Below, piece by piece: positions 1,212-61,747 of a DNA stretch of 64,000 nt. Position 1 is the first letter of the stretch. Each line of letters starts with the position of its first letter. A model generated the notes under the pieces. The model was not told the DNA's origin and searched no databases. It saw nothing but the letters and a program-made list of their open reading frames with translations. Both the position numbers and the translations under genes were made by a program. The DNA comes from a bacterium (lineage in GTDB: Bacteria > ARS69), in assembly GCA_041393395.1 (NCBI GenBank), contig JAWKKG010000002.1, positions 124,468 through 188,467 of the forward strand. The letters are read 5' to 3'.

Positions 1212-2987
1212 ATGTCCGGATTCCTGCACCGCGCCCTCGTCTGCGGAGTGGCGGCCCTCGGCCTCGCGACTCCGGCCGAGGCGGCCATCCGTCGCGTCCC
1301 GACCGACTTCGTGACCCTGTTCCAGGCGATCTTCGAATCCGCGCCGGGAGATACGGTCCAGGTCGTGGGGAACGGCGGCGCGACCTTCCATCACGCGCAG
1401 CTCACGTTCGACAAGGACCTCACGATCCAGGGGGGATGGCGCGCGGATTTCGCGGTGCGCGACCCCGAGGTCTACGTGACGGTCGTTCGCGACACGACGA
1501 ATCTGTACAACAAGGCCCTGTTCCTCGTGGAGGGCTCACCCCGCCTGGTGTTCGACGGCATCCAGATCATCGGTGGTCAGATCGGGATCCGCTCGGAGGG
1601 CGGCGCGGACATCACCCTGCGCGACTGCACGATCCGGAGTCAGCGCAACGGCGCCGTGCCGAACACGCCGATCGGGCCGGCGGGCGGCGGCATCCGCATG
1701 GTGGGCGGCACGTTGCGGATCGAGAACACGCGGATCCAGAACATCGTCACCCGCACGGAAGGGGCGGGCATGGTGCTCGACGGCGTGTCCAGCTTCTCGG
1801 CGACGGGCCTGCAACTGGACAACGTGACGGCGGCCCGGCTCACCGGCGGTTCGAACGGCGGCGGGATCTGGGCGAGCGGCGTGCAGGACATCCTGATCGA
1901 GAACAGCACGCTGGAGAGTTGCTCGAGCGTCGCCGACGGCGGACTGCTGTTCGTCACCGGCGGCCCGGCGCTGTTGCGAGGATGCACGCTGCGGAACGGA
2001 CTCGCCTCGAGCGACGGTGGCGCGCTGGCGCTCGTCGAGGCCGGCGACGTGACGCTCGAGAACTGCGTGATGGAAGGCAATCGCGGTTTCTTCGGTGGCG
2101 GGATCCGCGCGGATGACTCGTCCCTGCTCACGCTGCGGGGATGCCGGATCGCGGAGAACGTCGCGCCGAACGAGGGGGCGGGTCTGTACCTGCACCGCAC
2201 CCCGTTCGAGTTCGAGAACTGCGAGTTCGAGGCGAACATCCGTCTCATCACGCCGCAGACGATCGTGGCCGAGGGGGCCTCGGCGCGCGTCATCGAATGC
2301 GACGGCTCCGTGACCGGAACGACGTTCACGAACGAGCGCTCCTCCGGGCGCGGCGGGAGCTGGTCGCAGATCGGCGGACTCGTCTCGTTCGACGGGTGCC
2401 GGTTCGAGAACTGCGAGTCCGGTGTGTTCGGAGGCGCGATCCAGATCGAGCTCGGCGGCGAGATCCAGGTGAGGAACTCCCTGTTCCACGGCAATCGCTC
2501 CAAGTTCGGCGGTTCGATCGCGACCTCGTTCACCGCCACCGTGAACATCGATCGGTCGACGTTCGTCGGCGACATCGCGGGGAGCGGTGGGGCGTCGGTG
2601 TACCTCGACACCGCCGCGATCGTGCGGTTCACGAACTCGCTCGCGTGCCTTGCGACGCGCGGGGACGTCATCTACTGCTCCGCGGCCACCCTGGAGGTCG
2701 ACCACTCCAACGTGTGGAACGACGATGCGGTAAACCAGCGCGAGGAGTACGGAGGCGCCTGCGGCGATCCCACCGGGACGAACGGCAACCTCGCGGTGAA
2801 CCCGGGTTTCTGCGTCCCCGCCGCGCCGGACTGGAGGCTGTCGGCCTCGTCGCCGCTGGTCGGGGCGGCCGCCGACGGGGGGGACATCGGCTGGTCCGGG
2901 GTCGGGTGCCCGGCGGCGGATCCGCTGTCGCTGGAGCCGACTTCCTGGGGGCGCCTGAAGGCGTCCTTCCGCCAGGGCGAACGCTAG
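1212..2987 (+). CDS. Secreted right-handed parallel beta-helix repeat protein (pectin-lyase fold) with the short C-terminal tag ...EPTSWGRLKASFR
   Basis: ATG at 1212 lies in frame inside the 714..2987 ORF; the upstream part of that ORF overlaps the hydrolase gene and is rejected. Signal peptide MSGFLHRALVCGVAALGLATPAEA. Repeated GG[AG]I/beta-helix turns and N-x-x-G motifs. The C-terminal module NVWNDD...NPGFC...SP...SWGRLKASFR is shared with the paralogs at 57209, 59238 and 43692. Confidence 0.75.
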   Translation: MSGFLHRALVCGVAALGLATPAEAAIRRVPTDFVTLFQAIFESAPGDTVQVVGNGGATFHHAQLTFDKDLTIQGGWRADFAVRDPEVYVTVVRDTTNLYNKALFLVEGSPRLVFDGIQIIGGQIGIRSEGGADITLRDCTIRSQRNGAVPNTPIGPAGGGIRMVGGTLRIENTRIQNIVTRTEGAGMVLDGVSSFSATGLQLDNVTAARLTGGSNGGGIWASGVQDILIENSTLESCSSVADGGLLFVTGGPALLRGCTLRNGLASSDGGALALVEAGDVTLENCVMEGNRGFFGGGIRADDSSLLTLRGCRIAENVAPNEGAGLYLHRTPFEFENCEFEANIRLITPQTIVAEGASARVIECDGSVTGTTFTNERSSGRGGSWSQIGGLVSFDGCRFENCESGVFGGAIQIELGGEIQVRNSLFHGNRSKFGGSIATSFTATVNIDRSTFVGDIAGSGGASVYLDTAAIVRFTNSLACLATRGDVIYCSAATLEVDHSNVWNDDAVNQREEYGGACGDPTGTNGNLAVNPGFCVPAAPDWRLSASSPLVGAAADGGDIGWSGVGCPAADPLSLEPTSWGRLKASFRQGER

Positions 2988-3381
2988 AATTCCCTTCGTT
3001 TTCCTGGACTTCACCGGATCTTCCGCGTCGCCGCGGCCCGGCTCGTTTGACTCGCGACGTCGCGGATTGCTAGACTGATCCCTCGTTCGGAGCGTGAGCT
3101 GCCCCCACGCACGAATCGATGGACCCTGATCGAGCAGCCCCAAACGACACCCTTTCGGCCCTGGTCCGGTCGGACGAGACCGACTCACTGAACCGAAGAA
3201 CATCCGATCGTCTGCCCGCTGGTCCTGCACCGGGGATTCTGTCATCGATGTCCTGCGATCCGAACGGGGCGCGACCCCGACCGGCCAACCCTTCGCTCCT
3301 CAGCTCGCACTGGGCCGTTTCACGCCCTGCCCGGCTCCTCGGTCCGATCCACGCACTTCCCAATCCCAAGAGGTGATCTCG

Positions 3382-6300
3382 ATGTCGATTCGCGTGCTCG
3401 CGAATGACGGGGCTCGTGCGCGTGTGTTTGCGCCATTGCGCTTCCTGCTGGTGGTCCTGGCATTGCTTGTGCCGGTCGGCGCCTCCGCGTCCGTCCTGAC
3501 CGCCCGCCTGCAGTTCGACGAGGCCGACCTGCGACTGGTCGACCAGAACGGAGCGCTCCGGGTGGCGCTCGTCGGCGAGACCGAGGTCGGCGGCGGGGAG
3601 GATGCGCCGTTGCCGATGGCGGTTCGGAGCTTCTACGTGCCCGCCGGCTACGAAGTGCGCGACGTCCGGGTCACTCCGGTCGATCGCGTGGAGGTCGCGC
3701 GCGCGGCGCGTCTCGTGCGGGAAGTCGCGCTCGACCCGGCGTCCGGTCGTCGTCCGTTCCCCGCGCCGGCGGTGGCGGGCGAGGGAGACCTGCATCCGGC
3801 GCGCACCGCGGTGACGCTCGGCGGCGGCGATCTCGGCGGTCATCGCGTGGAGTCGGTCGCCGTGTTCCCGGTGACCTGGAATCGCGCCACCGGCGCGCTG
3901 AGTCTCGCGCGGACCGTCGATCTCGAGCTCGAGCTCGCTCCGGTCGCGGCGCACGCGGAAGACCTCGTGGCGCTCCGTCCCGCGCCCGAGCGAGATCGTC
4001 TGTTCCTGGAGGCCGTGCGCGGCATGGTCTCGAATCCGGCCGACGTTCCGTTCGAGACGGACGAGCCGGCTCTGTCCCTGCCGGGCGGCTTCGCGCCGAC
4101 GGACCTTCCGAGCGTCGAGGGAAGCGGCGTGCAGATGGTCATCGTCACGACGGACGCGCTCGCGGCGGAGTTCCAGGGGCTCGCGGACTGGAAGACCAAG
4201 AAGGGTGTTCCGACCGTCATCCGTACGGTCGAGTGGATCGACGCGAACTACCCGGCCGGCCATGACGGCGCCGAGCGCGTCCGCATGTTCCTGAAGGACG
4301 CCTGGTCGAAGTGGGGCATCGGGATCGCGCTGCTCGGCGGCGACCACGACGTGGTGCCGATCCGGTTCGCGTGGAGCCGCTTCTTCTTCGGCGGCACCGG
4401 CGTGCCGACCGACCAGTACTACGCCTGCCTTTCGGGCGACTGGAACGCCGACGGCGACCAGTACTACGGCGAAGGCACGTACCAGCTCGACCCCGGAGAT
4501 CAGGTCGATCTGTACCCGGACCTCGTCGTCGGACGCGCGAGCGTGGAGAACGCGACCGAGGCGGCGACGTTCCGGACGAAGTCCCTCACGTACGAGAAGA
4601 ACCCGCCCGCGGGATACGTGGAAAAGGTCTGCTACCTCGCGGAGGTGCTGTTCCCGGACACGTGGGAGTACGGCGATCCGCCGGGCAACATCACGCTCGA
4701 CGGCAAGACGCTGACGGACGCGTTCGATCTGCATCTGCCCGTCGGCTGGACGCGTACGAAGTGCTACCAGTCGGACAACAATCTGGACCGGGCGCACGCG
4801 CTCACCCAGCTCTCCACCGGTCACCACCACCTGATGACGCTGATGAACCACGGCGACGCGTTCAAGTTCTCGGTCGGCAACGGCCTGAACCCGCTCATCT
4901 TCGTGGCGGACACGAACACGCTGACGAACGGCGATTACCTGATGTTCGTGATGGCGACCGCGTGCAATCCGAACCAGCTCGATCTGGAATGCCAGGGCGA
5001 GTCGTTCATGAACAACCCGACCGGCGGCGCCGTGGCGGTCATGGGACCCACGCGGGAAGACTTCCCGCTCTCGGCGTCGGACTACCACGAGTCGATGCTC
5101 GACCTCGCGTTCCGGGTGGGGATCACGGGATTCGGCGCGATGAACCAGCTGCACCGCGTGCCGTTCATCCCGATCGCCCAGACCGAGTCCACGCCCGACC
5201 GGTGGACGATGATGACGAAGATGCTCCTCGGCGATCCGGAGATCCGCTTCTGGACCGAGGAGCCGAAGGCGATGCAGGTCACCCATGTGCCGAGCGTGGC
5301 GCTGGGAACCCCCTCGATCACGGTGCACGTCGCGCAAACCGGGACGCCGATTCCGAACACGCTCGTGTGTATCAGCGATGCGAACGGGACCTATGCGCGC
5401 GGTCGTACGAACGCGGCCGGCGACGTGACGCTCGCGATCACGAGTTCTGCTACCGGCACGGTTTCGGTGGCGGCCACCGCGAAGAACTACCGCCCGAAGG
5501 AGAGCACGTTCTCGCTCACGGCGGCGGCCGGCGCGCAGCTCGCGCTCACGGGCGCCGTGCTGGACGATGACGCGATCGCGCCCTCTTCGGGGAACGGCGA
5601 TGGCGTCGTCGACGCCGGGGAGACGATCGAGGCGAACCTGTCGGTCAAGAACGCCGGCACCGTCACGGCGAACAGCGTCACGGCGACGGCGTCGATCGCC
5701 GCGGGCAGCAGCGCCACGTTCAACCTGCAGTACGCGGGCGTGGCCGATCCGTCGCGGGTGTTCGTGGGACCGGATGCGGTGAACCCTGCCGCGATTCCGT
5801 TCACCCTGAACTTCGCCGCGCCGAGCATCGACTACATCGGTCGCCCGAACATGAGCTTCGCGGCCGACTCGCTGTCCGACGCCGGCGTGTACCTCTGGCA
5901 GGACGACGAGGGCTGGCATCTCCGCTGGAGCACGGCCGGCGATTCCTCCGCGGTCACCGGCACGGTGACGACGGACGGGAAGATCCGCGCGACGCACACG
6001 CCGTTGCTCGAGGCCACGCTGGACTCCAGCAGCCTCAACGGCCCGGCGACCGTGCTGACGTTCGCGGGCACGACCACGGAGTCCGATCTCGTGGACGGCG
6101 TGGACTTCGCGATGTCGGACGCGTCGATGCTGACCGTGACCGGCGGCGGCAGCGCGAATCTCGGCAACATCACGGCCGGCGCCACGGCGGCCGGAACGAT
6201 CACGTTCGCGGTGTCGCCGAACGCGCGCGACGGCCAGGTCGGTTACGTGGACCTGACCTTCACGTCGACGCTCGCGAGCTGGACGGACGCGATCCCGGTC

Positions 6301-8553
6301 GTGTTCGCGGGTCCCGAGCTCGAGGCGTACGTCTTCGCGATCGACGACTCGAACAGCCCGCCGCTCTCCGGCGACGGCGACGGCATCGTCGAGGTCGGCG
6401 AGACGGTGCGACTCACGCCCACCGTGCTGAACCGAGGAACGGGCGCCGCCATCTCGGTCGATGGCGCGGCCACGGCGGCCGCCGGCATCACGTTCGTGGA
6501 CGCGGCGGATGCCTACGGCGACGTGGATCCGCTCGCTCAGACCGCCGGCACCGACGGCTACGTGTTCACCGTCACCTCGGCGGCGGGAACGTCCATCGAT
6601 CTCACGCTCACCGATTCGCTCGGTCGGACCACGGTCAAGAACATCGAGTTCGTGGCGCCGGCCGCGCCGGTGAACGTCGCGTTCGAATCCGGCTCCACGG
6701 AGATCACGGTCTCGTGGGATCCGGTCGCGGACGCGGACCTCGCCGGGTACAACGTCTACCGGAGCCCGACCTCCGGGTCCGGTCACACCCGCGTGAACTA
6801 CGAGCTGCTGCGTACGGGCTCGCGCTACGTCGACGAGGGCCTCGCGCTCGGGTCGATCCAGTTCTACTACCTGACGGCGGTGGACTCGTCCGGCAACGAG
6901 AGTCCGGCGTCGGCGGAGATCGAGGCGTGGACCACCATCCCGCAGGTCGGTGGCTTCCCGAAGGATGCGAACAGCAACGTGTTCAGCGGCATGACCATGG
7001 CCGACGCGGACAACGACGGCGACGGCCTCGAGCTGTTCGTGGGCTCGCAGGACTTCCGCATGTACGCGTGGGAAGACGACGGCTCGGACGTGGCCACCGA
7101 CTGGCCGGTCGCGGCGAACGCCGCGGTCTGGGCCACGCCGGCGCTCGGGGACCTCGACGGCGACAACCTGCTCGAGGTGATGTGGGGCGCGATGGACTCG
7201 CGATTCTACGTCACGCACCACGACGGTACGCCCGCGATCGGTCCGAATCGCTGGATCTTCGACGTGCAGGGTTCGAACCAGACCATGCGCGGCGCGCCGG
7301 TCATCGCGAACGTGGATGCGGATCCGGAGTACGAGTTCCTCGTGGGCACGGACTTCGGCACGCTCTACGGCTTCGAGCACGATGGCACGCCGCTGCCGGG
7401 TGCCGACTCGCTCGGCGTGATCTACACCGCGCCGCAGACGAACGAGTTTCCGCCGCGGATCTGGGGGCCGCTTGCGGTCGGCGACCTGGACGACAACGGG
7501 ACGATGGAGATCGTGTTCACGTGCTGGAACGATCGTCTGTACGTCATCGGGGCCGACGGCACCGATCGCCCCGGTTTCCCGATCCAGCATCCCGAGGACT
7601 TCCGCAACGGTCCGTCGCTCGGCGACCTGGACAACGACGGAACGCTCGAGATCGTCGCGGGGAACATCGACAGCAAGCTGTACGTGTGGAACCACGACGG
7701 CACGTCGTATCTCACCGGCACCAACGGCGTGTTCGCCGACCTGCCGGGCGAGATCCGGAGCCAGCCGGCACTGTGCCAGCTCGACGCGGATCCGGAGCTG
7801 GAGATCGTGGTCACCTGCATGGACGGCGCGATCTACGCGTTCAATCACGACGGCTCGGGCTTCACCCAGATCGGCGGGCTGCTCGCCATGCTCGATTCGG
7901 GTGACGGCATCTCGGCGAGCCCGATCGTCGTGGACGTGGACGGCGACGGCGACATGGAGATCCTCGTCGGCCATCGCAACGGCAGCTTCTACGGCGTGCA
8001 CCACACCGGCGCGCGCGTGGCGGGGCTCCCGATCCCGACGTCGCTCCAGATCTTCTCGACGGCGGCGGCCGGCGACATCGACAACGACGGAGACGTCGAC
8101 GTCGCGTTCGCGTCCTACGACGAGAGCGTGAACGTGCTCGACTTCCCGGGCGCGTCCACACCGGAGGCGTACGAGTGGCCGACGACGGGCGGCAACGTCC
8201 GGCGCACGTCGCTGTACGGCGAGCTCGCGGACGGCGGCGCGACGGACGTCACCCCGCTGCCGGGCAGCGCCGCGGTGCAGTTCGCGCTCTCGCAGAACAC
8301 CCCGAACCCGTTCCCCGGCGGCACCTCGATCGAGTTCGCGGTGCCGAAGACGCAGCACGTCACCCTGCGGGTCTACAACGTCGAGGGGCGTCTCGTGCGC
8401 ACCCTCGTCGACGAGTCCGTGCAGGCGGGGCGTGGTCGCGTGAACTGGGACGGTCGCGACGCCCAGGGTCGGGCGCTGTCCTCGGGCGTGTACTTCTACC
8501 GCCTCGACAACGGGGAGACGTCGGTGACCCGCAAGAGCGTGCTCCTGCGGTAG
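3382..8553 (+). CDS. Very large secreted multidomain protein: gingipain-like C25 cysteine peptidase domain, FG-GAP/VCBS beta-propeller repeats, a fibronectin-III domain, and a FlgD-Ig/T9SS-type C-terminal sorting domain
   Basis: ATG at 3382 is preferred over GTG at 3373 because AAGAGG sits 9 nt upstream. Signal peptide is present. C25 motifs: GGDHDVVP, NHGDAFKF (His) and ATACNPNQ (Cys). FG-GAP-like repeats: GDLDGDNLLEV, GDLDDNGTMEIV, GDLDNDGTLEIV, VDVDGDGDMEILV, GDIDNDGDVDVAF. FN3: VSWDPVADADLAGYNVYRS...YYLTAVDSSGNES. C-terminus ...GVYFYRLDNGETSVTRKSVLLR is a typical T9SS type-A CTD ending. Confidence 0.8.
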   Translation: MSIRVLANDGARARVFAPLRFLLVVLALLVPVGASASVLTARLQFDEADLRLVDQNGALRVALVGETEVGGGEDAPLPMAVRSFYVPAGYEVRDVRVTPVDRVEVARAARLVREVALDPASGRRPFPAPAVAGEGDLHPARTAVTLGGGDLGGHRVESVAVFPVTWNRATGALSLARTVDLELELAPVAAHAEDLVALRPAPERDRLFLEAVRGMVSNPADVPFETDEPALSLPGGFAPTDLPSVEGSGVQMVIVTTDALAAEFQGLADWKTKKGVPTVIRTVEWIDANYPAGHDGAERVRMFLKDAWSKWGIGIALLGGDHDVVPIRFAWSRFFFGGTGVPTDQYYACLSGDWNADGDQYYGEGTYQLDPGDQVDLYPDLVVGRASVENATEAATFRTKSLTYEKNPPAGYVEKVCYLAEVLFPDTWEYGDPPGNITLDGKTLTDAFDLHLPVGWTRTKCYQSDNNLDRAHALTQLSTGHHHLMTLMNHGDAFKFSVGNGLNPLIFVADTNTLTNGDYLMFVMATACNPNQLDLECQGESFMNNPTGGAVAVMGPTREDFPLSASDYHESMLDLAFRVGITGFGAMNQLHRVPFIPIAQTESTPDRWTMMTKMLLGDPEIRFWTEEPKAMQVTHVPSVALGTPSITVHVAQTGTPIPNTLVCISDANGTYARGRTNAAGDVTLAITSSATGTVSVAATAKNYRPKESTFSLTAAAGAQLALTGAVLDDDAIAPSSGNGDGVVDAGETIEANLSVKNAGTVTANSVTATASIAAGSSATFNLQYAGVADPSRVFVGPDAVNPAAIPFTLNFAAPSIDYIGRPNMSFAADSLSDAGVYLWQDDEGWHLRWSTAGDSSAVTGTVTTDGKIRATHTPLLEATLDSSSLNGPATVLTFAGTTTESDLVDGVDFAMSDASMLTVTGGGSANLGNITAGATAAGTITFAVSPNARDGQVGYVDLTFTSTLASWTDAIPVVFAGPELEAYVFAIDDSNSPPLSGDGDGIVEVGETVRLTPTVLNRGTGAAISVDGAATAAAGITFVDAADAYGDVDPLAQTAGTDGYVFTVTSAAGTSIDLTLTDSLGRTTVKNIEFVAPAAPVNVAFESGSTEITVSWDPVADADLAGYNVYRSPTSGSGHTRVNYELLRTGSRYVDEGLALGSIQFYYLTAVDSSGNESPASAEIEAWTTIPQVGGFPKDANSNVFSGMTMADADNDGDGLELFVGSQDFRMYAWEDDGSDVATDWPVAANAAVWATPALGDLDGDNLLEVMWGAMDSRFYVTHHDGTPAIGPNRWIFDVQGSNQTMRGAPVIANVDADPEYEFLVGTDFGTLYGFEHDGTPLPGADSLGVIYTAPQTNEFPPRIWGPLAVGDLDDNGTMEIVFTCWNDRLYVIGADGTDRPGFPIQHPEDFRNGPSLGDLDNDGTLEIVAGNIDSKLYVWNHDGTSYLTGTNGVFADLPGEIRSQPALCQLDADPELEIVVTCMDGAIYAFNHDGSGFTQIGGLLAMLDSGDGISASPIVVDVDGDGDMEILVGHRNGSFYGVHHTGARVAGLPIPTSLQIFSTAAAGDIDNDGDVDVAFASYDESVNVLDFPGASTPEAYEWPTTGGNVRRTSLYGELADGGATDVTPLPGSAAVQFALSQNTPNPFPGGTSIEFAVPKTQHVTLRVYNVEGRLVRTLVDESVQAGRGRVNWDGRDAQGRALSSGVYFYRLDNGETSVTRKSVLLR

Positions 8554-43691: not shown

Positions 43692-44672
43692 ATGCGATTC
43701 CCTGCTTCTCGTGCCGTGCTCCTGCTCGCACTCCTCGTCGCGGCGCCGGTCCGCGCCGACGTCCTGCTCAACGAGTTCGGGCGCACGGGCGCGGGCGCGA
43801 GCACCGTCGAGCTCTACAACGCGCTCCCGGACACGGTGGATCTGACGGGCTGGTTCCTGCGCAATCAGGACGGCCTCGAGGTCGCGCTGTCCGGCAGCAT
43901 CGCACCCGGCGAGCACCAGACCACCTCCACCGGGAACCTCGTGGTGGAGGGCGGCCAGATCGAGCTGTACGACGGGACGCTGCTGCAGCGGGACGAGGTC
44001 TCCTTCGGCGATCAGGGTGGGGCGCCGCTGCCGCCGCCGGGAGCTTTCTCGTGCGCGCGCTCTCCCGACGGCACGGACACCGACGACGACGCGGCCGACT
44101 GGAACCTCGACTCCACGCCGACCTTCGGCGCCACGAACGATCATCTGCCCGCGAACCTCGGCTTCTCGAACGTCGCCATCAACGAGGTCGGGCGCAGCGC
44201 GTTCGCGTTCGGCCGTCTCGCATGCCCGACGCCCCGCATCGAGCTCCACAACAAGGGCGTGACGCCGGTGAACCTGAACGGCTGGTTCCTCACCGATGGC
44301 CGCCAGGTCGTACCCCTGAGCGGTCCGCTGCCGGCCAACGGCTTCGTCGTCGTGACGGACTTCCCGCCGCTGTTCTGCTTCGAGGAGACGCATGTGCTCT
44401 ACCTGTTCGGGCCGGCCGGGCGCCGCTTCGATCAGGTCGGAGTGCTCGGCTCGTCGCTGCCGCCGGGCAGTCTCGAGGACAGCTGGCAGCGCGTGCCGGA
44501 TGGATCCGGCCCGTACGACGGCTACGACTACGCGACCAGCGGTGGTTCCGTCACGTGGGTGATCCGCACGTCCACGTTCGGGCAGCCGAACGGGAGCGGT
44601 CCGATCACGGATGCACCGGAGCTCGACACGGAAACCTGGGGACGTCTGAAGGCCGGCTACCGGGTCCGCTGA
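43692..44672 (+). CDS. Secreted protein with two lamin-tail-domain (LTD) repeats and the ...ETWGRLKAGYR C-terminal tag
   Basis: GAGGA RBS. Signal peptide MRFPASRAVLLLALLVAAPVRA. LTD pattern twice: VLLNEFGRTG...VELYNALPDTVDLTGWFLRNQDG and VAINEVGRSAF...IELHNKGVTPVNLNGWFLTDGRQV. C-terminus TETWGRLKAGYRVR. The upstream part of the 42702 ORF is rejected. Confidence 0.75.
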   Translation: MRFPASRAVLLLALLVAAPVRADVLLNEFGRTGAGASTVELYNALPDTVDLTGWFLRNQDGLEVALSGSIAPGEHQTTSTGNLVVEGGQIELYDGTLLQRDEVSFGDQGGAPLPPPGAFSCARSPDGTDTDDDAADWNLDSTPTFGATNDHLPANLGFSNVAINEVGRSAFAFGRLACPTPRIELHNKGVTPVNLNGWFLTDGRQVVPLSGPLPANGFVVVTDFPPLFCFEETHVLYLFGPAGRRFDQVGVLGSSLPPGSLEDSWQRVPDGSGPYDGYDYATSGGSVTWVIRTSTFGQPNGSGPITDAPELDTETWGRLKAGYRVR

Positions 44673-53686: not shown

Positions 53687-53830
53687 GGTTCGGGAATCCC
53701 GGATGCCGACCCGAGGTCGGCTCGAATACGTTCATATCAATGGAGTCGACGTCCGGCGACTCCCCAGCGCGCCTCTCCCCCGCGCGCTCGCCGAGACTCC
53801 TTCCACGCTCGTTGCGGCCTCCGAGCGTCT

Positions 53831-53882
53831 GCGACCGGATCCGCCGGTCGCTACTGCCCTCCCTCCCGGGAGACGCAAGATG
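53831..53882 (+). promoter_or_regulatory. Conserved 5' leader, copy A: 8-bp-arm palindrome GCGACCGG-ATCCG-CCGGTCGC, a C-rich tract, SD inside the palindrome CTCCCGGGAG, and the ATG
   Basis: Near-identical over 52 bp to 59189..59240 (copy B), which sits upstream of the paralogous beta-helix gene. Confidence 0.55.
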
Positions 53883-56800
53883 CGCAGGTTCTTGCAAGTC
53901 CTGGCACGAATCGTGCCCCCCCCCATTTCTGGAAACAGGTAGCGCGCTCGGAATCGCGGCACTCGCTCTGATACCCTGGTCCACAGCCCGGGCGGACGTT
54001 ACCGACGCCCGGCTCTGGGAGCCCGCCGTGCAGATGACGTTTGCCGAGTTCGACGTGCAGGTGCTGGCCAAGCAGCTCGCCCGCCGATCGGGTGGGGGGT
54101 TCCATCAGATCGTGGAAGCGTGGTCCGACAGCCTCGGTCGCAACAACGGCTTCGGCTGGTACCTCGAGGTCGGACCGTCCCTCGATTGGGCTTCGGCCTG
54201 GCAGGATCGCGAGCTGTTCACTTTCGTTCCCGACACGACTGTCGGAAACAAGGTCCCGTACGGGCATTCCGACTTTCGCATGCTCGTCAGCAACGACGAC
54301 GACGTACACGCGTTCTACGAGGCGAAGTTCTATCCGCCCGATTCGATCCGAGCAATGGTCGCTTACAAACGTCGGGGTGGGGTGTCGTGGGACTCCGCGT
54401 CCGACCCGGTGTTTCTCGCTCCCGGCTGCGTGAGTGACTCGCCGCGCCCCTACTACGATAGCGAAACAGACATCATGCACCTGATGTTCACGGCGGCGGC
54501 TACCACGGGATGCTACCCCGCTCCTCCGTCCGGCACGGACCTGCAGGTCTATACGAGAAAGGCAGTGTCCGCCGCAGACTCCGCTTGGGCGCCGCTGACG
54601 TACATGTACCCGAGCATTGGCCTCGGTCCGATCGGGGGCGGTGTGTTCGCGGAAGCCGACACGGTGCACTTCTTCGGGAGTCGAACAGAGAACCAAAGCG
54701 GGTGGAAAGTCGTCACGGTGATCCACCGGAGCGGACTCCGCCCGCCCCCGGCGAGTACTGGACGTTCGCCCACGTCGATACGCTCGACTCTTTTCTGGTG
54801 CCTGGTGATGGCGATCCCCGATCGGAGCCCGAGGACCAGCCCACACCCTTCGAAGGGGCCAGCGGCGACTCCCTCTACGTGGCCTGGGCTCGACCGATGG
54901 GTACGACCGGCGCCGACGAGGTGATGTTCGCCGTCTACGATCTTCGGGACACTTTATGGACCCCGGACAACTGCCCCACGGGTAACTGCGGTTCGCTTCC
55001 CCCGTTCGGTCTCCAGCTCACGACGACGGATGATTCCGCGGAGGACTCGTGGGATCCAAAGGTGGTCGTAGACGCGGCCGGCGCCGTTCACGTCTTCTAT
55101 CGCGTCGGCGATCCCTCGACCCTGCAGCACTTGTTCAACTCTGGCGACCCGACCAACCTCGCGGACTGGAGCGAGCCGACGATCCTGTCGTTCGAGGAGG
55201 AGCACACGGCGAGACTGCCGACGGTGGTCGCCGACGCTGACACCCTGTGGGTCGCGTACTCCGCTCAGTCTCTGACCGGATGCACGGCGAATTGCCGGCA
55301 GGGCTTCTTCAAGCTCGGCACCCGTCACGTGAACTGGGGCGGCACGGTCAACGTCCGCTCGGACTTCGTCGTGGCGTCGGCCGGCACGCTCTCGATCGCG
55401 CCGGGCACCACGGTGATCGCGGGCGCGGCTCCCGTCGGAAACCTGGGCAATCGCGCGGACGACGTCGAGATCGTGGTGGGCGGAACCCTGCTCGCGGAAG
55501 GAACGTCGACCGAGGCGGTGACCTTCACCGGAGATGTCGCGACCCCGGGATCCTGGGGAGGCATCTTGTTCCGCGACACCGCCGACGACTCGCCGAGTTC
55601 GATCTCGTACGCCGACTTCGAGTATCCGGAGTTCGCGGTGCAGGTCGACTCGCTGGCCGGGACGCTGTTTCGGCCCACGTTTGCGGGAGTCGCCCAGGCC
55701 GACGTCTACGTTGATCGGAGTACACGGTTGCCGCTGGGATCGGCCTGGTGGTTCGAATCCCCCGTGAGCATCCGCGTTGCTTCTGAGGACGCCGCCCAGC
55801 CGGGTGGTGACATCTCCATCACCATCGACGGCGACCTGTACGCGCAGCCCGCGGGTGGCCGGGTGCAGGTTCTGTCCGCGTCCCCGACCGCAAGCGGGGA
55901 GGACTGGGAGGGGATGGTCGTCCGGTCTGCGGGCACGATCATCGCCTCGAACCTCGAGATCGGGCACTGCCGCAATCCCCTGACTCTGCTTGCCGCGGAC
56001 CACGCGCAGCTCTTCGACAGTGAACTTCACACCTTCGCGGGAGACGGTGTGTTCGACTGGGGCTCAGATGCGCGCATCGAGCGATGCCTCATTTGGAACG
56101 GCGGGCTCGATGTGCAGGCGAGCGCTGGATCCGCGATTCGCAGCATCAGCTCGGCGACTTGGGCTCTTGCCGACACCATCGACGGTCGGTTTTCGCACGG
56201 AATCTGGAGCTCGTATTCATACGGATTCTGCACCGCGGCCCCGATTCCGCTCGGGAAGACCATCCAGATCGACGGGAATGTGATCCGAGGCCCCGGCGTC
56301 GAACACCCTTCGGAGACGGGACGCGGACTGTACGTCGAGTGGATCTGTCACGGAATCGACGCGCTGGTGTCGGACAACTGTGTCTCGCAGTGGCCGCAGC
56401 AGGGCATCTCGCTCTCCAATGCGGCCAACACCCAGGTCGCGTGCAACTGGGTGGACAGTACGGAAGTCGGACTGAAACATTTCCGGGGCGATCATGTTCC
56501 CTCGGGTGACGCGGACGTCCAGTTCCGACGGAACGTTGTCAGTGCCTGGGAGACTCGCGGCATCAACGTGACCTCTCCGGAGGGGTTCGAAATGGCGGAT
56601 CTCTCCACAGCGGCGCGGAACGAGGTGCGCCAGGATGGCCAGGACGACACCTTCGTTCGGTTTCGCCCCACGAGCAGCACGCAAGGTGCCGAGTTCGATG
56701 TGAGCAACCAGCTCTGGGTTGACCCCACCGGCGCCGTTCTCACGGATCCTGCGGACGTGCTCACCGACTGCGACTTCAACCTGCTGTCGCCCATCGTGAT

Positions 56801-57206
56801 CACCTCGCTGCTGACGTCCCAGGAGCGCTGCGCGAGCATAGCGACGTGCCCAGGAAGCTCGCAGGCGGTGGCCCGGCGAGGCGCAGACCGCGCACCGGAA
56901 CCAGGAGCAGAACGTGGCGACCCGCCACGCCGTTTCGAGAGCTTCGTGGAAACGGTGGCCGGGCGAGCGCGAGTCGTGCTGGCCGGTCCGGCGGACACGG
57001 AGCCGCCCGTGCAGGGGCGTGTCTACGACGTCGCCGGGCGTCTCGTTCAGGAGGTCCATGGCACCTTGGTGTCTCCCGGTCGGTACGTGCTCGAATGGAA
57101 CGGCTCGACTGGGGCAGGCCATCAAGCGGCAGACGGTGTGTACTTCTTGCGCGTCGAAGCCCCGGGCCATCATCGAACGCACAAGATCGTCCGGATCCGG
57201 AGGTAG
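53880..57206 (+). CDS. Large secreted protein: BNR/sialidase-like N-terminal region, right-handed beta-helix region, and a FlgD-Ig/T9SS-type C-terminal domain. As sequenced, the reading frame is broken twice at homopolymeric C tracts (C9 at 53916..53924 and C5 at 54745..54749), so it may be a pseudogene, a sequencing artefact or phase-variable.
   Basis: Frame 0 gives ATG 53880 MRRFLQVLARIVPPP..., which stops at 53942. Frame 1 (53925..54749) continues a signal-peptide-like ...FLETGSALGIAALALIPWSTARA|DVTD... and plausible protein up to ...WKVVTVIHRSG. Frame 0 again (54750..57206) runs GEYWTFAHVD... to the C-terminus ...GRVYDVAGRLVQEVHGTLVSPGRYVLEWNGS...GVYFLRVEA.... Removing one C at the first tract and adding one at the second restores a single ORF of about 1105 aa. 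Confidence 0.55.
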
Positions 57207-57208
57207 CC

Positions 57209-58513
57209 ATGCGACGACTTTCGATTTCGGGCGGAGTGATCGCCCTTCTCTCGACAGGGTTCGCTTCGATCGACGTGGCTTCCGCGACGACTCTACGGGT
57301 CCCCGAGGACTTCCCGACCATTCAAGCGGCCGTGGACGCGGCGGGTCCGATCGACGTCGTGGACGTCGCCCCGGGCACGTGGTCGGACGCGGAGACGCGT
57401 TCCGTCTGGAACGGCGGGATGTACGTCAACGTCCGGTCGGTCGTGTTCTTGAAACCGGGAATCACCGTGCGCTCTCGGAGTGGCGCCGAAGCCACGGTCA
57501 TCGACCTGTCGCTGAACCCCGGTCCGGGGTTCCAGACCCCCGTGGTCTATCCGGGACAACAGGCGGGGCCCGCGACGATCCAGGGCTTCACGGTGCTCGG
57601 AGCCGGCTCGGGCGGAGGCGGCATCAGTTCCCTCGCGGCGCAGAAGCTCATCGTCCGCGACTGCATCGTGCGGGACATCCACACCGGGGGACGTGCGATC
57701 ACGACGGCCAACGGCGGTGGGCTGGAGATCTACGACACCCTCGTGGAGAACGTCACCTTGCTCGGCGGCACCGCGGTCCGCGCCATCAGCGGCGGAAGTC
57801 TGAAGATGATCCGGACTACGATTCGCGACAACTCGGCGGGTGGGGTCTACTCCACGGTTCCGACGATCCTCGAGGATTGCAACTTCGTCCGGAATCGGAC
57901 GACGCAAGTGGGAGCAGGAGCCAACCTCCAGGGGCCGTCCGAAGTCACGCGGTGTCTGTTTCAGGAGAATGTCTCGCTGGAGGATCCAGGCGGGGGATTG
58001 GTCGTCTCGTCGTCACCCGCTGTAGTCGAGGGATGCACTTTCGCTCGCGATTCCTGCGGCGCCACGGGAGCGGCGGCGGGGATGTGGGTGGCTTATGCGC
58101 CGGGACTCTCGGTGATTCGCAACAACACATTCGTCGGGTGCCATTCTCCGGTCTTCCCTGCATCTGCGTTCGGCGTGTCCAGTAGCGTCGTCGAGTTCTC
58201 GAACAACATCGTCGCTGGCAGCACCGGATCGGCCGCACTGCACAACGTTGGTGGCACGATCACGGGGGGCTGCAACGACTACTGGAACAACGAGGAAGGG
58301 GACTTCGAGGCCTGGACCCCGCTCCCCACCGACTTGTCCGCCGATCCACTCTTTTGCGATCCCGAAGCTCACGATTTCCGACTGCACAGCAACTCTCCTT
58401 GCGCGCCGGATCAGAACCCGACCTGCGGTCAGGTCGGAGCTTGGTCCGTCGCGTGCGGTTCCGTGTCCATCGAGCCCCTGTCCTGGGGGCGAATCAAGGG
58501 GGCGTACCGATGA
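57209..58513 (+). CDS. Secreted right-handed beta-helix protein, paralog A, with the ...SWGRIKGAYR C-terminal tag
   Basis: GGAGG RBS 3 nt after the upstream stop. Signal peptide MRRLSISGGVIALLSTGFASIDVASA. N-terminal LRVPEDFPTIQAAVDAA is a pectin-lyase-fold hallmark. C-terminal module GCNDYWNNEEGDF...DPLFCDPEAHDFRLHSNSPC...CGSVSIEPLSWGRIKGAYR. 434 aa. Confidence 0.8.
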   Translation: MRRLSISGGVIALLSTGFASIDVASATTLRVPEDFPTIQAAVDAAGPIDVVDVAPGTWSDAETRSVWNGGMYVNVRSVVFLKPGITVRSRSGAEATVIDLSLNPGPGFQTPVVYPGQQAGPATIQGFTVLGAGSGGGGISSLAAQKLIVRDCIVRDIHTGGRAITTANGGGLEIYDTLVENVTLLGGTAVRAISGGSLKMIRTTIRDNSAGGVYSTVPTILEDCNFVRNRTTQVGAGANLQGPSEVTRCLFQENVSLEDPGGGLVVSSSPAVVEGCTFARDSCGATGAAAGMWVAYAPGLSVIRNNTFVGCHSPVFPASAFGVSSSVVEFSNNIVAGSTGSAALHNVGGTITGGCNDYWNNEEGDFEAWTPLPTDLSADPLFCDPEAHDFRLHSNSPCAPDQNPTCGQVGAWSVACGSVSIEPLSWGRIKGAYR

Positions 58514-59124
58514 AACCGCGTGCGATCTCGCTCGTCCTCGCAGTGCTCGCCGCTGCCACCTCCGTCCACGCCGAGACTCAGGTCTTCCCGTGCACGGAGC
58601 AGGCGGTGATCACCAGCGGCGCGGGTCTGGGGCGTCTTCTCTTCCGATTCGATGGCACGACGGTCCTGCGCGATGAACTCGTCACGGCGGCGTGGCTCGA
58701 TGTCTCCTGTTCGAACGCATCTGGCGACGCCCTCACCGTGCGGATGGCTCCGCTGGATCGGGCCTGGTCGGTCGGATCCGTGACCTGGACGTCTCCGTGG
58801 CACGACGCCGGCGGCGATCTCGCTCGAGCGTTCGTAACGACCGAGGACGTCGCGTCCAGTTCGGTCCGCCTGAACGTGACGGAGTGGGTGCGCAGTCACC
58901 TCGCCGGAGAGGTCGCGGACTACGGCCTCATGCTCACGGTCGACGACGGGGCGCGAGGGGGTCTTACCTCCAACGAACGAGCGATATTCGGCGATCCGCC
59001 GGTCGCCACGCTGACGATCGAGTTCCGTAGCTTGACGGCTCAAGGGATCGAAGGCGGGCCCCGCGCCTACTTGGCGCGTCGTGAGGCGCGCGTCGCGGCC
59101 GATCGGGCGGACCGGTTGAGGTAG
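58510..59124 (+). CDS. Small secreted partner protein A (unknown family), translationally coupled to beta-helix A
   Basis: ATG overlaps the upstream stop (ATGA). Signal peptide MKPRAISLVLAVLAAATSVHA. Paralogous to 60562..61191 through shared blocks S(V/A)TW(T/S)SPW, ...E(V/G)(A/L)(D/G)YGL(M/I)..., ...L(T/A)(I/L)(E/R)(F/V)RSLTA(Q/R)G. 204 aa. Confidence 0.7.
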   Translation: MKPRAISLVLAVLAAATSVHAETQVFPCTEQAVITSGAGLGRLLFRFDGTTVLRDELVTAAWLDVSCSNASGDALTVRMAPLDRAWSVGSVTWTSPWHDAGGDLARAFVTTEDVASSSVRLNVTEWVRSHLAGEVADYGLMLTVDDGARGGLTSNERAIFGDPPVATLTIEFRSLTAQGIEGGPRAYLARREARVAADRADRLR

Positions 59125-59188
59125 CGGACTCGGCGAGGCTGTCCGTCGCCCGGCGATGACCGCCTGGGCTTCGCTGAAGTTCTCGTCG

Positions 59189-59240
59189 GCGACCGGATCC
59201 GCCGGTCGCACCTGCCCTCCCTCCCGGGAGACGCAAGATG
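59189..59240 (+). promoter_or_regulatory. Conserved 5' leader, copy B (palindrome, C-rich tract, SD, ATG)
   Basis: GCGACCGGATCCGCCGGTCGCACCTGCCCTCCCTCCCGGGAGACGCAAGATGCG differs from copy A at only 2 positions. Confidence 0.55.
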
Positions 59241-60575
59241 CGAGGCCCTCGATCGATTGCACGCCGGAGACTTGTGTGCGGCGCGGCGACTGGTGGTGAT
59301 CCGATGAGATTGCGAATCACTCTCGCCGCGGGGATCGTCTTCGGTGTCGGCCTTGCTGCGGCCGACGCGAGCATCCTCCGGGTTCCTGAGGACTACTCGT
59401 CTGTCCTCGCGGCGGTCGACGCCGCGGTTTCGGGCGACAGCGTGCTCGTTCAGCCGGGCACTTGGACCGACACGGCGATCCGGATCGCTCCCACCGGAGC
59501 GTACGTCAAGTCCACGCTGTTCGTGAAGCCGGGCATCACCGTGCTGGGGCTCGGTGGACCGGAGGTCACGACGCTCGATGTTGGTCCGGAAGTTGGTGCG
59601 TTCGCCGTGACGATTACAAACAATGCTCCTGGCTCGGCGCCGTCGTACGTGATTGGCTTCACCATCACGGGTGGCGGGACAGGTGTTGGCGGATACGGCG
59701 GATCTCCCCTGGAGCTCCACGATTGCCGGATCGTCGACAATCCGCGGCAGGCGGCCAACATCGCCTACACCCGCTTGACCTTGGTCGGAGGAACAATCAC
59801 GGGAAATGCAGAGGGTCAGTCGAGCCCGCAGTGGGGATGTGTGTTCGGCCACGAAAGCGCCTTGGAACTGCGACAAGTCACGATCGAACGAAACTCAAAC
59901 GTCTTCGGTGTCGTTTTCGATAGCCAACCACAGTCTGTTCGCTTGATCGACTGCACGTTTCTCGACCAGACGCTCGCCTGCCGCGTCTGGGACTGCCCGG
60001 ACTTCGTGGTCGAGAACTGCTCGTTCGTCCGGTGTTCGGACGGTGGCATTCAAGTGCGAAACTGCCAGGGTCGGATCGAGTTCACGACGTTCGCTTATGA
60101 CACGTCCGGGGCGGGTGGGGGAGCCCAGCTGAGTCGCTCGACGATCGAAGTCAGCAACAACACGTTCTATCGCTGCCACACCGACGGATCCGCCGCCGCA
60201 CTGTCCGTTTCGTTCACGGACGGCGGCGTCCACAACAACATCTTCACGGGCTGCACGACACCCCGCGGCACGGTCTCCTTCGGCGGCGGCACCCAGCACC
60301 CCTCCACCGGCTGCAACCTCTTCTGGGACAACGAGGGCGACGACTTCTGGAACGACTGGGTCCCCGCCCCCACCGACATCGAGGCGGACCCCGAGTTCTG
60401 CAACGAAACCGTCCTCGACCTGACGCTGCACTCCACGTCCCCCGCCGCCTCCGCGAACTCCGCCTGCGGTCTCCTCGGCGCGTTCGATGTCGGCTGCGGC
60501 TCCGTCTCCGTCGACGCCACGAGCTGGGGTCGCCTCAAGAACCTCTACCGGAGCTCGGATCATGAAGACCGCTAG
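59238..60575 (+). CDS. Secreted right-handed beta-helix protein, paralog B, with the ...SWGRLKNLYR C-terminal tag
   Basis: The conserved-leader ATG at 59238 is in frame; an alternative start ATG at 59303 gives a clean signal peptide MRLRITLAAGIVFGVGLAAADA. LRVPEDYSSVLAAVDAA; beta-helix repeats; C-terminal module GCNLFWDNEGDDF...DPEFCNETVLDLTLHSTSP...CGSVSVDATSWGRLKNLYRSSDHEDR. Confidence 0.8.
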   Translation: MRGPRSIARRRLVCGAATGGDPMRLRITLAAGIVFGVGLAAADASILRVPEDYSSVLAAVDAAVSGDSVLVQPGTWTDTAIRIAPTGAYVKSTLFVKPGITVLGLGGPEVTTLDVGPEVGAFAVTITNNAPGSAPSYVIGFTITGGGTGVGGYGGSPLELHDCRIVDNPRQAANIAYTRLTLVGGTITGNAEGQSSPQWGCVFGHESALELRQVTIERNSNVFGVVFDSQPQSVRLIDCTFLDQTLACRVWDCPDFVVENCSFVRCSDGGIQVRNCQGRIEFTTFAYDTSGAGGGAQLSRSTIEVSNNTFYRCHTDGSAAALSVSFTDGGVHNNIFTGCTTPRGTVSFGGGTQHPSTGCNLFWDNEGDDFWNDWVPAPTDIEADPEFCNETVLDLTLHSTSPAASANSACGLLGAFDVGCGSVSVDATSWGRLKNLYRSSDHEDR

Positions 60576-61191
60576 AACGCATTCGATCGCGCTCCTCGCG
60601 CTCGCCGCCATCCTGGGCGCAGTCGCTCCTTCCCGGGCGAGCGAGCCGACTCTCTCCCTCTCGCGCACGGTGATCACGGACTCCTACGGCCGCTCCCGGA
60701 TCCTGTTCGAGATCCCGTCGTTGCAGGAGTACCGCGAGGAGTGGGTCTCCTCCGCCACCTTGATCCTCGACCTGCCTCCCGGATCCTTCCCGGGCGAAGT
60801 CGAGCTCCTGGTGGACGCCGTCGCGACCCCGTGGGGCGGAAGTGCCACGTGGAGTTCGCCGTGGACTCACCCCGGCGGCGACGTGGAAGGGCAGACCGGC
60901 GACGGCACCACCCTGGCCGCCGGACCGTCCCCGTCTCAGGTCCGACTCGACGTGACCACCGCGCTCCGCGGCATGGTGGAGGGCGACCTCGGCGAGTACG
61001 GACTCATCGTGTACCCGTCCGATCCCGCGAAGCCGGGGTTCACGGCCGCGGAATCCCAGGTGCTCGCCTCCGCCAGCGGGACGCTGGCGCTGCGGGTCCG
61101 CAGCCTCACCGCGCGCGGCTACCACGGGGGAGCCAAGGCGCTCCTGGATCGCAAGCGCAGCGCCCGACTCCTGGAGGACCATCCGCAGTAG
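60562..61191 (+). CDS. Small secreted partner protein B, paralog of 58510..59124
   Basis: ATG lies 14 nt before the upstream stop, so the genes overlap. Signal peptide MKTARTHSIALLALAAILGAVAPSRA. It has the same conserved blocks as partner A. 209 aa. Confidence 0.7.
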   Translation: MKTARTHSIALLALAAILGAVAPSRASEPTLSLSRTVITDSYGRSRILFEIPSLQEYREEWVSSATLILDLPPGSFPGEVELLVDAVATPWGGSATWSSPWTHPGGDVEGQTGDGTTLAAGPSPSQVRLDVTTALRGMVEGDLGEYGLIVYPSDPAKPGFTAAESQVLASASGTLALRVRSLTARGYHGGAKALLDRKRSARLLEDHPQ

Positions 61192-61291: not shown

Positions 61292-61747
61292 CTAGCGGTA
61301 GATCGACTTCACCCGACCCCAGCTCTCGCTCTCCACGGAGATCGCCGGGAACTCCGGGGCGCCCATCTGGATCCACTCGCGGATCACGTCGATGGTCGTC
61401 TGCGGCAGCGGGCCGCCGATGAGCGGCATCTGGTTGCCCACGATCCACGGGCAGTTCTCGAGCTTGCAGATGATGTAGCTGTTGTCCGGATCGAACGGCG
61501 CCACGCGAACCGCCGTGGGCACCTCCACGCTCGGCACGTCCACGAGGAAGCTGAACGCCTGGCCCTCGCGCAGGTCGAGGTTCGCCTGCATCGCGCCGCC
61601 GTGGCAGGCGGCGAGCGCGCAGCCCGGCGTGAAGACGTTCGCCTGGATGTCCTGCAGGGTGGGCTCGAACGGACCGCCCGCGGCCCGGGCGCTGCCGAAG
61701 CCGAGGAGGGTCAGAACGGAAAGAGTCGCAATCGTCGCAACGCGCAT
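61292..61747 (-). CDS. Small secreted Cys-motif protein carrying the same ...SESWGRVKSIYR C-terminal tag
   Basis: Start at ATG 61747. Signal peptide MRVATIATLSVLTLLGFGSARA. Contains CALAACHG (Cx4CH) and CKLENC. 151 aa. The 216-aa upstream extension is rejected. Confidence 0.6.
   Translation of the reverse strand: MRVATIATLSVLTLLGFGSARAAGGPFEPTLQDIQANVFTPGCALAACHGGAMQANLDLREGQAFSFLVDVPSVEVPTAVRVAPFDPDNSYIICKLENCPWIVGNQMPLIGGPLPQTTIDVIREWIQMGAPEFPAISVESESWGRVKSIYR

Follow-up and report, generated by a model that had tools for sequence, protein, structure and literature searches.

Linked genes for a secreted beta-helix protein and a small DNRLRE/CBM96-like partner, present twice in a stretch of DNA from an uncultivated bacterium

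The window analysed here is a 64,000-nucleotide stretch of contig JAWKKG010000002.1 (assembly GCA_041393395.1, positions 124,468 to 188,467), from a bacterial metagenome-assembled genome (MAG) assigned to ARS69. It contains two adjacent cassettes, A and B, each composed of a gene for a beta-helix protein and an overlapping gene for a small secreted protein, hereafter the partner. Beta-helix protein A (57209..58513, +; 434 amino acids, aa) starts with a signal peptide and an RVPED cap, continues as a PbH1-type right-handed beta-helix and finishes with a four-cysteine C-terminal module and a basic tail, SWGRIKGAYR, encoded at 58481..58510 (+). Partner A (58510..59124, +; 204 aa) has a signal peptide followed by an acidic DNRLRE/CBM96-like beta-sandwich with a basic helix at its C-terminus, and partner B (60562..61191, +; 209 aa) has the same architecture. 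Beta-helix protein B lies at 59238..60575 (+) and is 445 aa long when counted from the ATG of a leader sequence described below; other possible starts are 59274 (433 aa, implied by the NCBI protein) and an ATG at 59304 (423 aa). An earlier note on this DNA had both beta-helix proteins ending in a shared SWGR[IL]K..YR. The motif is present in both, but in copy B seven residues, SSDHEDR, come after SWGRLKNLYR (60522..60551, +) and are encoded where the gene overlaps that of partner B, so this protein does not end in YR.

The four open reading frames (ORFs) form a real and non-random pattern, and the note's description of two adjacent paralogous cassettes holds at these coordinates. The two beta-helix proteins are 33% identical (BLASTP, E 7e-48), as are the two partners (BLASTP, E 1e-21), and the sequence blocks shared by partners A and B are kept in their relatives. 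Each partner gene overlaps the stop of the gene before it, again as noted earlier. The overlap is 4 nt (ATGA) in copy A, where a Shine-Dalgarno-like AAGGGGG precedes the partner start at 7 nt, and 14 nt in copy B, where GGAG lies 8 nt before the partner start. The predicted translational coupling of the genes within each cassette is supported. By inspection, the N-terminus of each of the four proteins shows a run of basic residues, a hydrophobic stretch and an AxA-type site (VHA/E, SRA/S, ASA/T and ADA/S, the slash marking the site). The G+C content of the window is about 70% and falls to about 65% across 54-60 kb, where the cluster lies.

Both large proteins pass the Pfam model Beta_helix (PF13229), scoring 46.2 and 43.6 bits against a cut-off of 25.9, and beta-helix A, modelled alone as a single chain, adopts the right-handed parallel beta-helix of the pectin lyase fold. 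Together with the signal peptides and the LRVPED..AAVDAA cap, this bears out their earlier description as secreted pectin-lyase-fold proteins. Searching with copy B retrieved 55 relatives, the named sources among them being Gemmatimonadota bacterium DHS20C21, with three paralogues, and Candidatus Eiseniibacteriota. All 42 aligned family members match PF13229, and 13 of the 42 homologues match Disaggr_assoc (PF08480), all below the Pfam cut-off. The best PDB sequence matches of the family profile are a polysaccharide lyase family 6 (PL6) alginate lyase (1e-9) and the AlgE4 epimerase (9e-8). The catalytic motif of AlgE is YG(F/I)DPH(D/E), and catalysis in PL6 enzymes depends on a Lys/Arg pair and acidic calcium ligands; the family alignment shows no obvious pair of this kind. 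Conservation peaks at the N-terminal cap, RVPEDY.SVLAAVDAA..GDSVLV.PGTW, and again over the last ~75 residues, which contain four invariant cysteines plus the tail. The central beta-helix retains just structural Cys, Asn and Phe residues and a fairly conserved FA.DS; between residues 100 and 340, D281/S282 and R253 are the sole fairly conserved residues among the 42 homologues, the alignment of this repeat region being uncertain. None of the four cassette proteins matches a type IX secretion system (T9SS) type A C-terminal domain (TIGR04183 / PF18962 / PF13860). In one distant beta-helix homologue, the position of the tail is taken by an additional domain and a T9SS C-terminal domain.

The partner had been described as a protein of unknown family, a view that hidden Markov model searches of the partners and their relatives overturn. 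Word-indexed searches recovered three close relatives of partner A, one being its own database entry, and six of partner B. A profile built from ten sequences was then run against 1.84 billion cluster representatives (50% identity) and gave 891 proteins at E<=1e-3 and 262 at E<=1e-10; nearly all of the best 150 matches are stand-alone proteins of 175-250 aa. Against the NCBIfam model DNRLRE_dom (NF033679), which has a curated cut-off of 34 bits, partner A scores 33.1 bits and partner B 25.4 bits. Partner A scores 19.3 bits with Pfam CBM96 (PF24517; cut-off 26), and partner B has no Pfam match. Relatives match these models more broadly: 103 of 110 match NF033679 at E<=0.01 (best 3.3e-12), 13 of 110 match PF24517, and 6 of 110 match Disaggr_repeat (PF06848), below the Pfam cut-off. 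Because of these matches, the partner is placed by sequence comparison as a divergent, stand-alone branch of the DNRLRE/CBM96 superfamily.

The partner also has the beta-sandwich fold of the solved CBM96 modules. It is not a module inside a larger carbohydrate-active enzyme: the partners stand alone, with their own start codons and signal peptides. By sequence alone the partner profile fails to reach the solved structures 7vbo (alginate-binding) or 8wab (chondroitin-sulfate-binding), so the tie to them comes through the NCBIfam model and the fold and not through a direct sequence match. The basic C-terminal helix is an addition of the partner's close subfamily. The sole PDB sequence matches of the profile are prodomains of transforming growth factor beta1 (TGF-beta1), which are weak (E about 0.03) and share the motif L.FDVT..VR.W....GF.L. 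These matches hint that DNRLRE/CBM96 domains and TGF-beta prodomains may be homologous, beyond a likeness of fold.

Linkage of the two genes was examined in 15 contexts viewed from the partner side, namely the two cassettes of the window and 13 relatives (L001-L010, L016, L011 and one further contig). The partner is paired with a beta-helix gene in 15/15, and the synteny proposed earlier as a check is therefore seen in every partner-side context that was read. A same-strand gene ends immediately upstream of the partner in 14 of the 15, often with a 4-nt overlap, and the tail was verified at the end of that upstream gene in 13 of the 14. Two of the relatives are A-type (L001, L002) and three B-type (L003, L004, L005); in all five the upstream gene overlaps by 4 nt and ends ...CG.VS.....SWGR.K..YR. 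Three Gemmatimonadota MAG loci and one further metagenome contig have the same pair arrangement, as do the distant partner relatives P0090 and P0150, and an overlapping gene lies upstream of the partner P0060. In L011, a low-GC contig, the order is a large BNR/beta-helix gene, the partner and a beta-helix gene. P0092 is a read-through fusion of the beta-helix and partner genes. In L004, L006 and L008 the pair is preceded by a gene for a large protein whose C-terminal domain is of the T9SS type, and such a gene is the usual upstream neighbour; since it is homologous to the gene before copy A, the conserved unit has three components. The earlier suggestion of a lineage-specific surface or secreted system finds support, and the locus is best described as a lineage-specific secreted or surface gene set, a conserved module of uncultivated Gemmatimonadota / Eisenbacteria-like bacteria.

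The source MAG (locus tags R3B81) holds at least four cassettes: besides A and B in the window, their contig of 1.16 Mb also carries B' (near R3B81_03435), and A' lies on a different one. Its cassette proteins beyond the window include MEZ5063758.1 / MEZ5063759.1 and MEZ5064760.1. The beta-helix proteins of B and B' are 20-42% identical over their first ~280 residues and 90-100% identical over their last ~125, and their partners are 97.6% identical. Because the two copies are near-identical in the partner and in the last third of the beta-helix gene while the body of the beta-helix is so divergent, the comparison indicates a recent conversion or duplication (or module-exchange) tract spanning the 3' third of the beta-helix gene and the whole partner gene. 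A and B themselves are read as old paralogues, or as copies brought together, and not as a recent tandem duplication, because each type has closer orthologues elsewhere and because L004 has the B type alone, directly after the gene with the T9SS-type tail.

The tail is not confined to the cassettes. A six-frame translation of the window contains five matches to [ST]WG.[ILVM]K..[YF], all within 8 residues of a stop codon, compared with no match in 200 shuffled controls. The five carriers are of three kinds: three beta-helix proteins, one protein with two lamin-tail domains and one small CX4CH protein. The third beta-helix protein (1212..2987, +; 591 aa) ends in TSWGRLKASFRQGER and has no adjoining partner gene. 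The secreted protein with two lamin-tail domains (43692..44672, +) ends in ETWGRLKAGYRVR; its tail shows that the motif is not tied to beta-helix proteins. The small secreted protein (61292..61747, -; 151 aa) is convergent with partner B, has the tail ESWGRVKSIYR and has no Pfam or NCBIfam match. Its CALAACH (CX4CH) motif is reminiscent of heme-binding domains. Since these last two carriers also lack a partner gene, the tail cannot be counted as a feature of the cassette, as it had been. Directly downstream of the third beta-helix gene, a 1807-codon frame (3130-8553, +; stop to stop) encodes a Peptidase_C25 domain (gingipain/PorU-type), FG-GAP repeats and a T9SS type A C-terminal domain.

Within the beta-helix family the tail terminates about 48 of the 55 relatives, and the K and R of ...K..YR are invariant across the alignment. 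The five tails in the window have no Pfam or NCBIfam match even at E<=10, which settles the model search of the C-terminus that had been proposed, and a literature search for the motif gave nothing relevant. In the model of beta-helix A the tail forms a short, low-confidence helix that is unpacked against the domain. Known C-terminal sorting signals are built from a signature motif, a hydrophobic transmembrane stretch and a basic cluster, and are covered by NCBIfam models. The tail does not belong with PEP-CTERM, LPXTG, GlyGly-CTERM or MYXO-CTERM, having no hydrophobic stretch and no model match. It is probably a lineage-wide localisation or anchoring motif, separate from the pairing with the partner. 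As an uncurated C-terminal sequence, it is the most novel aspect of the locus.

Behind a signal peptide, the product of the large gene directly upstream of copy A (53880..57206, +) has an N-terminal region that belongs to no known family, then a beta-helix region, and closes with a FlgD_ig / T9SS type A C-terminal domain (FlgD_ig, 32.7 bits). It is 28% identical over 654 aa (E 6e-60) to an intact 1112-aa protein encoded ahead of the pair in a Gemmatimonadota MAG. In the assembly the frame of the large gene is broken twice, at a C9 run (53916-53924) and near 54740-54790. The C9 run, the sole run of at least 8 G or C in the 64 kb, begins 36 nt past the ATG, and C8 would give a good signal peptide, MRRFLQVLARIVPPPFLETGSALGIAALALIPWSTARA/DVTD. 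Possible causes are phase variation, a pseudogene and a homopolymer assembly error. A duplicated 5' leader is shared by the large gene and copy B, as had been observed. One copy (53826..53884, +; 59 nt) includes the ATG of the large gene and the other (59184..59242, +) lies between partner A and beta-helix B. The two are 95% identical over 59 nt, sharply bounded and end in ATGCG. The leader contains a perfect 8-bp palindromic GC hairpin, GCGACCGG-ATCCG-CCGGTCGC, and a second hairpin in which CUCCC pairs with the Shine-Dalgarno GGGAG that lies right ahead of the ATG; the leader may serve to control translation. It has no third copy in the window and no Rfam match, and it is absent from 16/16 related loci. 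No sigma-70-like promoter was found at the locus, and terminator-like sites are no commoner there than in shuffled sequence.

How the pair might work is suggested by systems in which its two halves are joined. Alginate, hyaluronate and pectate lyases are known with fused DNRLRE/CBM96 modules, which also occur in the archaeal disaggregatase (PMC9971899), an enzyme that depolymerises the methanochondroitin matrix (PMC12369344). Because of these fusions, together with the weak disaggregatase-family matches of both halves, we propose that the partner is a non-catalytic ligand-binding subunit supplied in trans, the pair being a split version of the beta-helix plus DNRLRE architecture of the polysaccharide lyases and of Methanosarcina disaggregatase. 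The full unit comprises three proteins: a large one of the cell surface that bears a T9SS C-terminal domain; a right-handed beta-helix protein of ~410 aa, exported by Sec, with its N-terminal cap, four-cysteine module and tail SWGR[ILV]KxxYR; and a beta-sandwich protein of ~185 aa, also exported by Sec, that belongs to the DNRLRE/CBM96 superfamily. Translational coupling would let the partner be made in step with the beta-helix protein, and the two would act jointly, presumably as a complex, on a cell-surface or extracellular polysaccharide. We give about an even chance to this proposal of a split beta-helix and binding-module unit that works on a surface or extracellular glycan.

Several observations weigh against it. 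Among the 42 homologues, no Lys, Arg, His or Glu is invariant between residues 100 and 340 of the beta-helix, and no AlgE-type DPH motif was seen in the sequences of beta-helix A or B when read by eye, with no scripted search. Enzymatic activity is thus plausible for these proteins and unproven, given the lack of invariant catalytic-type residues and of a visible DPH motif. Since the family is conserved at its N-terminal cap and C-terminal module, protein-protein contacts fit as well as work on a glycan. On the partner side, neither protein of the window reaches the curated NF033679 or PF24517 cut-offs. The partner cores are acidic (pI, isoelectric point, 4.3-4.5), with a very basic C-terminal tail, whereas the groove of the alginate-binding CBM96 is rich in Lys and Arg (PMC9971899), and this difference weakens the case for an acidic-polysaccharide ligand. 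Pairing, which had been thought obligatory, is also not universal from the beta-helix side, although it holds throughout from the partner side: L012 has two tandem tailed beta-helix genes and no partner, and L014 (9299-9445) and L015 (5567-5725) retain only a 48-aa remnant of the partner C-terminus. At L014 and L015 the remnant ORF lies downstream of a tailed beta-helix gene and corresponds to the last strand and basic helix of the partner, and the gene upstream resembles a degraded T9SS-tailed gene. Both loci appear to carry a decaying copy of the module.

These points leave room for a role of the partner towards the beta-helix protein itself. As a prodomain-like escort, inhibitor or chaperone, the partner would bind the C-terminal module or basic tail of its cognate beta-helix in the periplasm and hold it inactive or export-competent until delivery, in the manner of a TGF-beta prodomain. 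Such a role would account for the conservation of the beta-helix family at its termini and not in its groove, and for the co-conversion of the beta-helix 3' end with the partner gene; the gene overlap is suggestive of 1:1 synthesis, the basic beta-helix tail could be bound by the acidic partner core, and TGF-beta1 prodomains are the only, if weak, PDB sequence matches of the partner profile. However, CBM96 modules in general resemble the TGF-beta prodomain fold, proteins without a partner gene have the tail too, and partnerless beta-helix homologues exist. We therefore regard an escort role as possible and somewhat unlikely, and a binding module acting in trans is the simpler reading when set against a chaperone, inhibitor or anchor. 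A wider proposition would combine three claims: that the tail, [VI]S[VI]E..SWGR[ILV]KxxYR, is an undescribed C-terminal signal by which unrelated secreted proteins of Gemmatimonadota / Eisenbacteria-like bacteria are localised or anchored; that the partner acts as a dedicated, prodomain-like escort recognising the C-terminal module of its cognate beta-helix, and is no carbohydrate-binding module; and that module and partner are exchanged as one unit while beta-helix bodies diversify. Taken as a whole, this combination is doubtful.

It is also conceivable that no enzyme is involved. The beta-helix proteins would then be variable surface adhesins or envelope-layer components, held on an anionic envelope by their basic tails, and the partner a co-anchored accessory or adaptor. 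The variable beta-helix body without conserved catalytic-type residues is in keeping with this, as are the at least four cassettes in the genome with the mosaic heads of B and B', and the fact that both proteins are acidic with short basic C-terminal tails. In addition, a surface subunit of the Bacteroidota BAM (beta-barrel assembly machinery) complex uses a DNRLRE-like fold, and a T9SS C-terminal domain replaces the tail in one distant homologue. Yet polysaccharide-modifying enzymes are the closest relatives in both sequence and structure, and catalytic residues may hide in the poorly aligned, repeat-rich central region, so we judge a purely structural or adhesive module to be unlikely. An origin of the pair from a prophage or phage, as a tailspike depolymerase and the chaperone for its assembly, is extremely improbable: both proteins have Sec-type signal peptides, and the neighbouring genes encode an ABC (ATP-binding cassette) transporter, a prenyltransferase and T9SS cargo, none of them phage. 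A tblastn search of both proteins against 50,697 phage genomes gave no match, excluding a phage tailspike origin at the sequence level.

The split beta-helix and binding-module reading offers a family and a testable role for many small secreted proteins now called hypothetical, the 891 profile matches being cluster representatives at 50% identity. In every context examined, such partners are tied to a particular beta-helix family in little-studied phyla of the Fibrobacteres-Chlorobi-Bacteroidetes (FCB) group. A CBM96-type module that occurs as a separate, coupled polypeptide is relevant to the annotation of CAZyme-like (carbohydrate-active enzyme-like) systems in metagenomes. Should the beta-helix proteins be enzymes, the module may serve the cell to remodel the polysaccharide on its own surface or its biofilm matrix. 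The tail matters independently of these questions, as a short conserved sequence on unrelated secreted proteins with no curated model; such signatures have led to new sorting systems.

Among known systems, the tail is most readily compared with T9SS type A C-terminal domains (TIGR04183 / PF18962 / FlgD_ig), which are likewise C-terminal on secreted proteins of the same organisms. The T9SS domain, however, is an Ig-like domain of 80 aa, while the tail is a stretch of ~10-18 residues that matches no model. The TGF-beta prodomains, or latency-associated peptides, are eukaryotic, made covalently with their cargo and cleaved by furin, whereas the partner's likeness to them is one of sequence and fold alone. 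For the beta-helix family, the nearest characterised proteins are the PL6 alginate/chondroitin lyases and the AlgE-type mannuronan C5-epimerases. The family differs from them in lacking an invariant Lys/Arg pair or acidic calcium ligands in its alignment, with no DPH(D/E) motif seen in beta-helix A or B, and its RVPED cap, four-cysteine C-terminal module and basic tail are its own.

For the partner, the comparison is with DNRLRE/CBM96 modules, of which 7vbo and 8wab are the solved examples. In place of an internal module, the partner is a separate polypeptide with its own signal peptide, encoded by a gene coupled to that of the beta-helix protein. Its core is acidic and not Lys/Arg-rich, it has an additional basic C-terminal helix, and the proteins of the window score below the curated cut-offs. 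The pair as a whole can be compared with the disaggregatase of Methanosarcina mazei and related archaeal surface proteins, in which a beta-helix and a DNRLRE-type module occur together in an extracellular protein. The matches behind this likeness are weak, all of them below Pfam cut-offs (PF08480 in 13/42 beta-helix homologues and PF06848 in 6/110 partner relatives), and the pair in the window differs in being bacterial and in being divided between two polypeptides.

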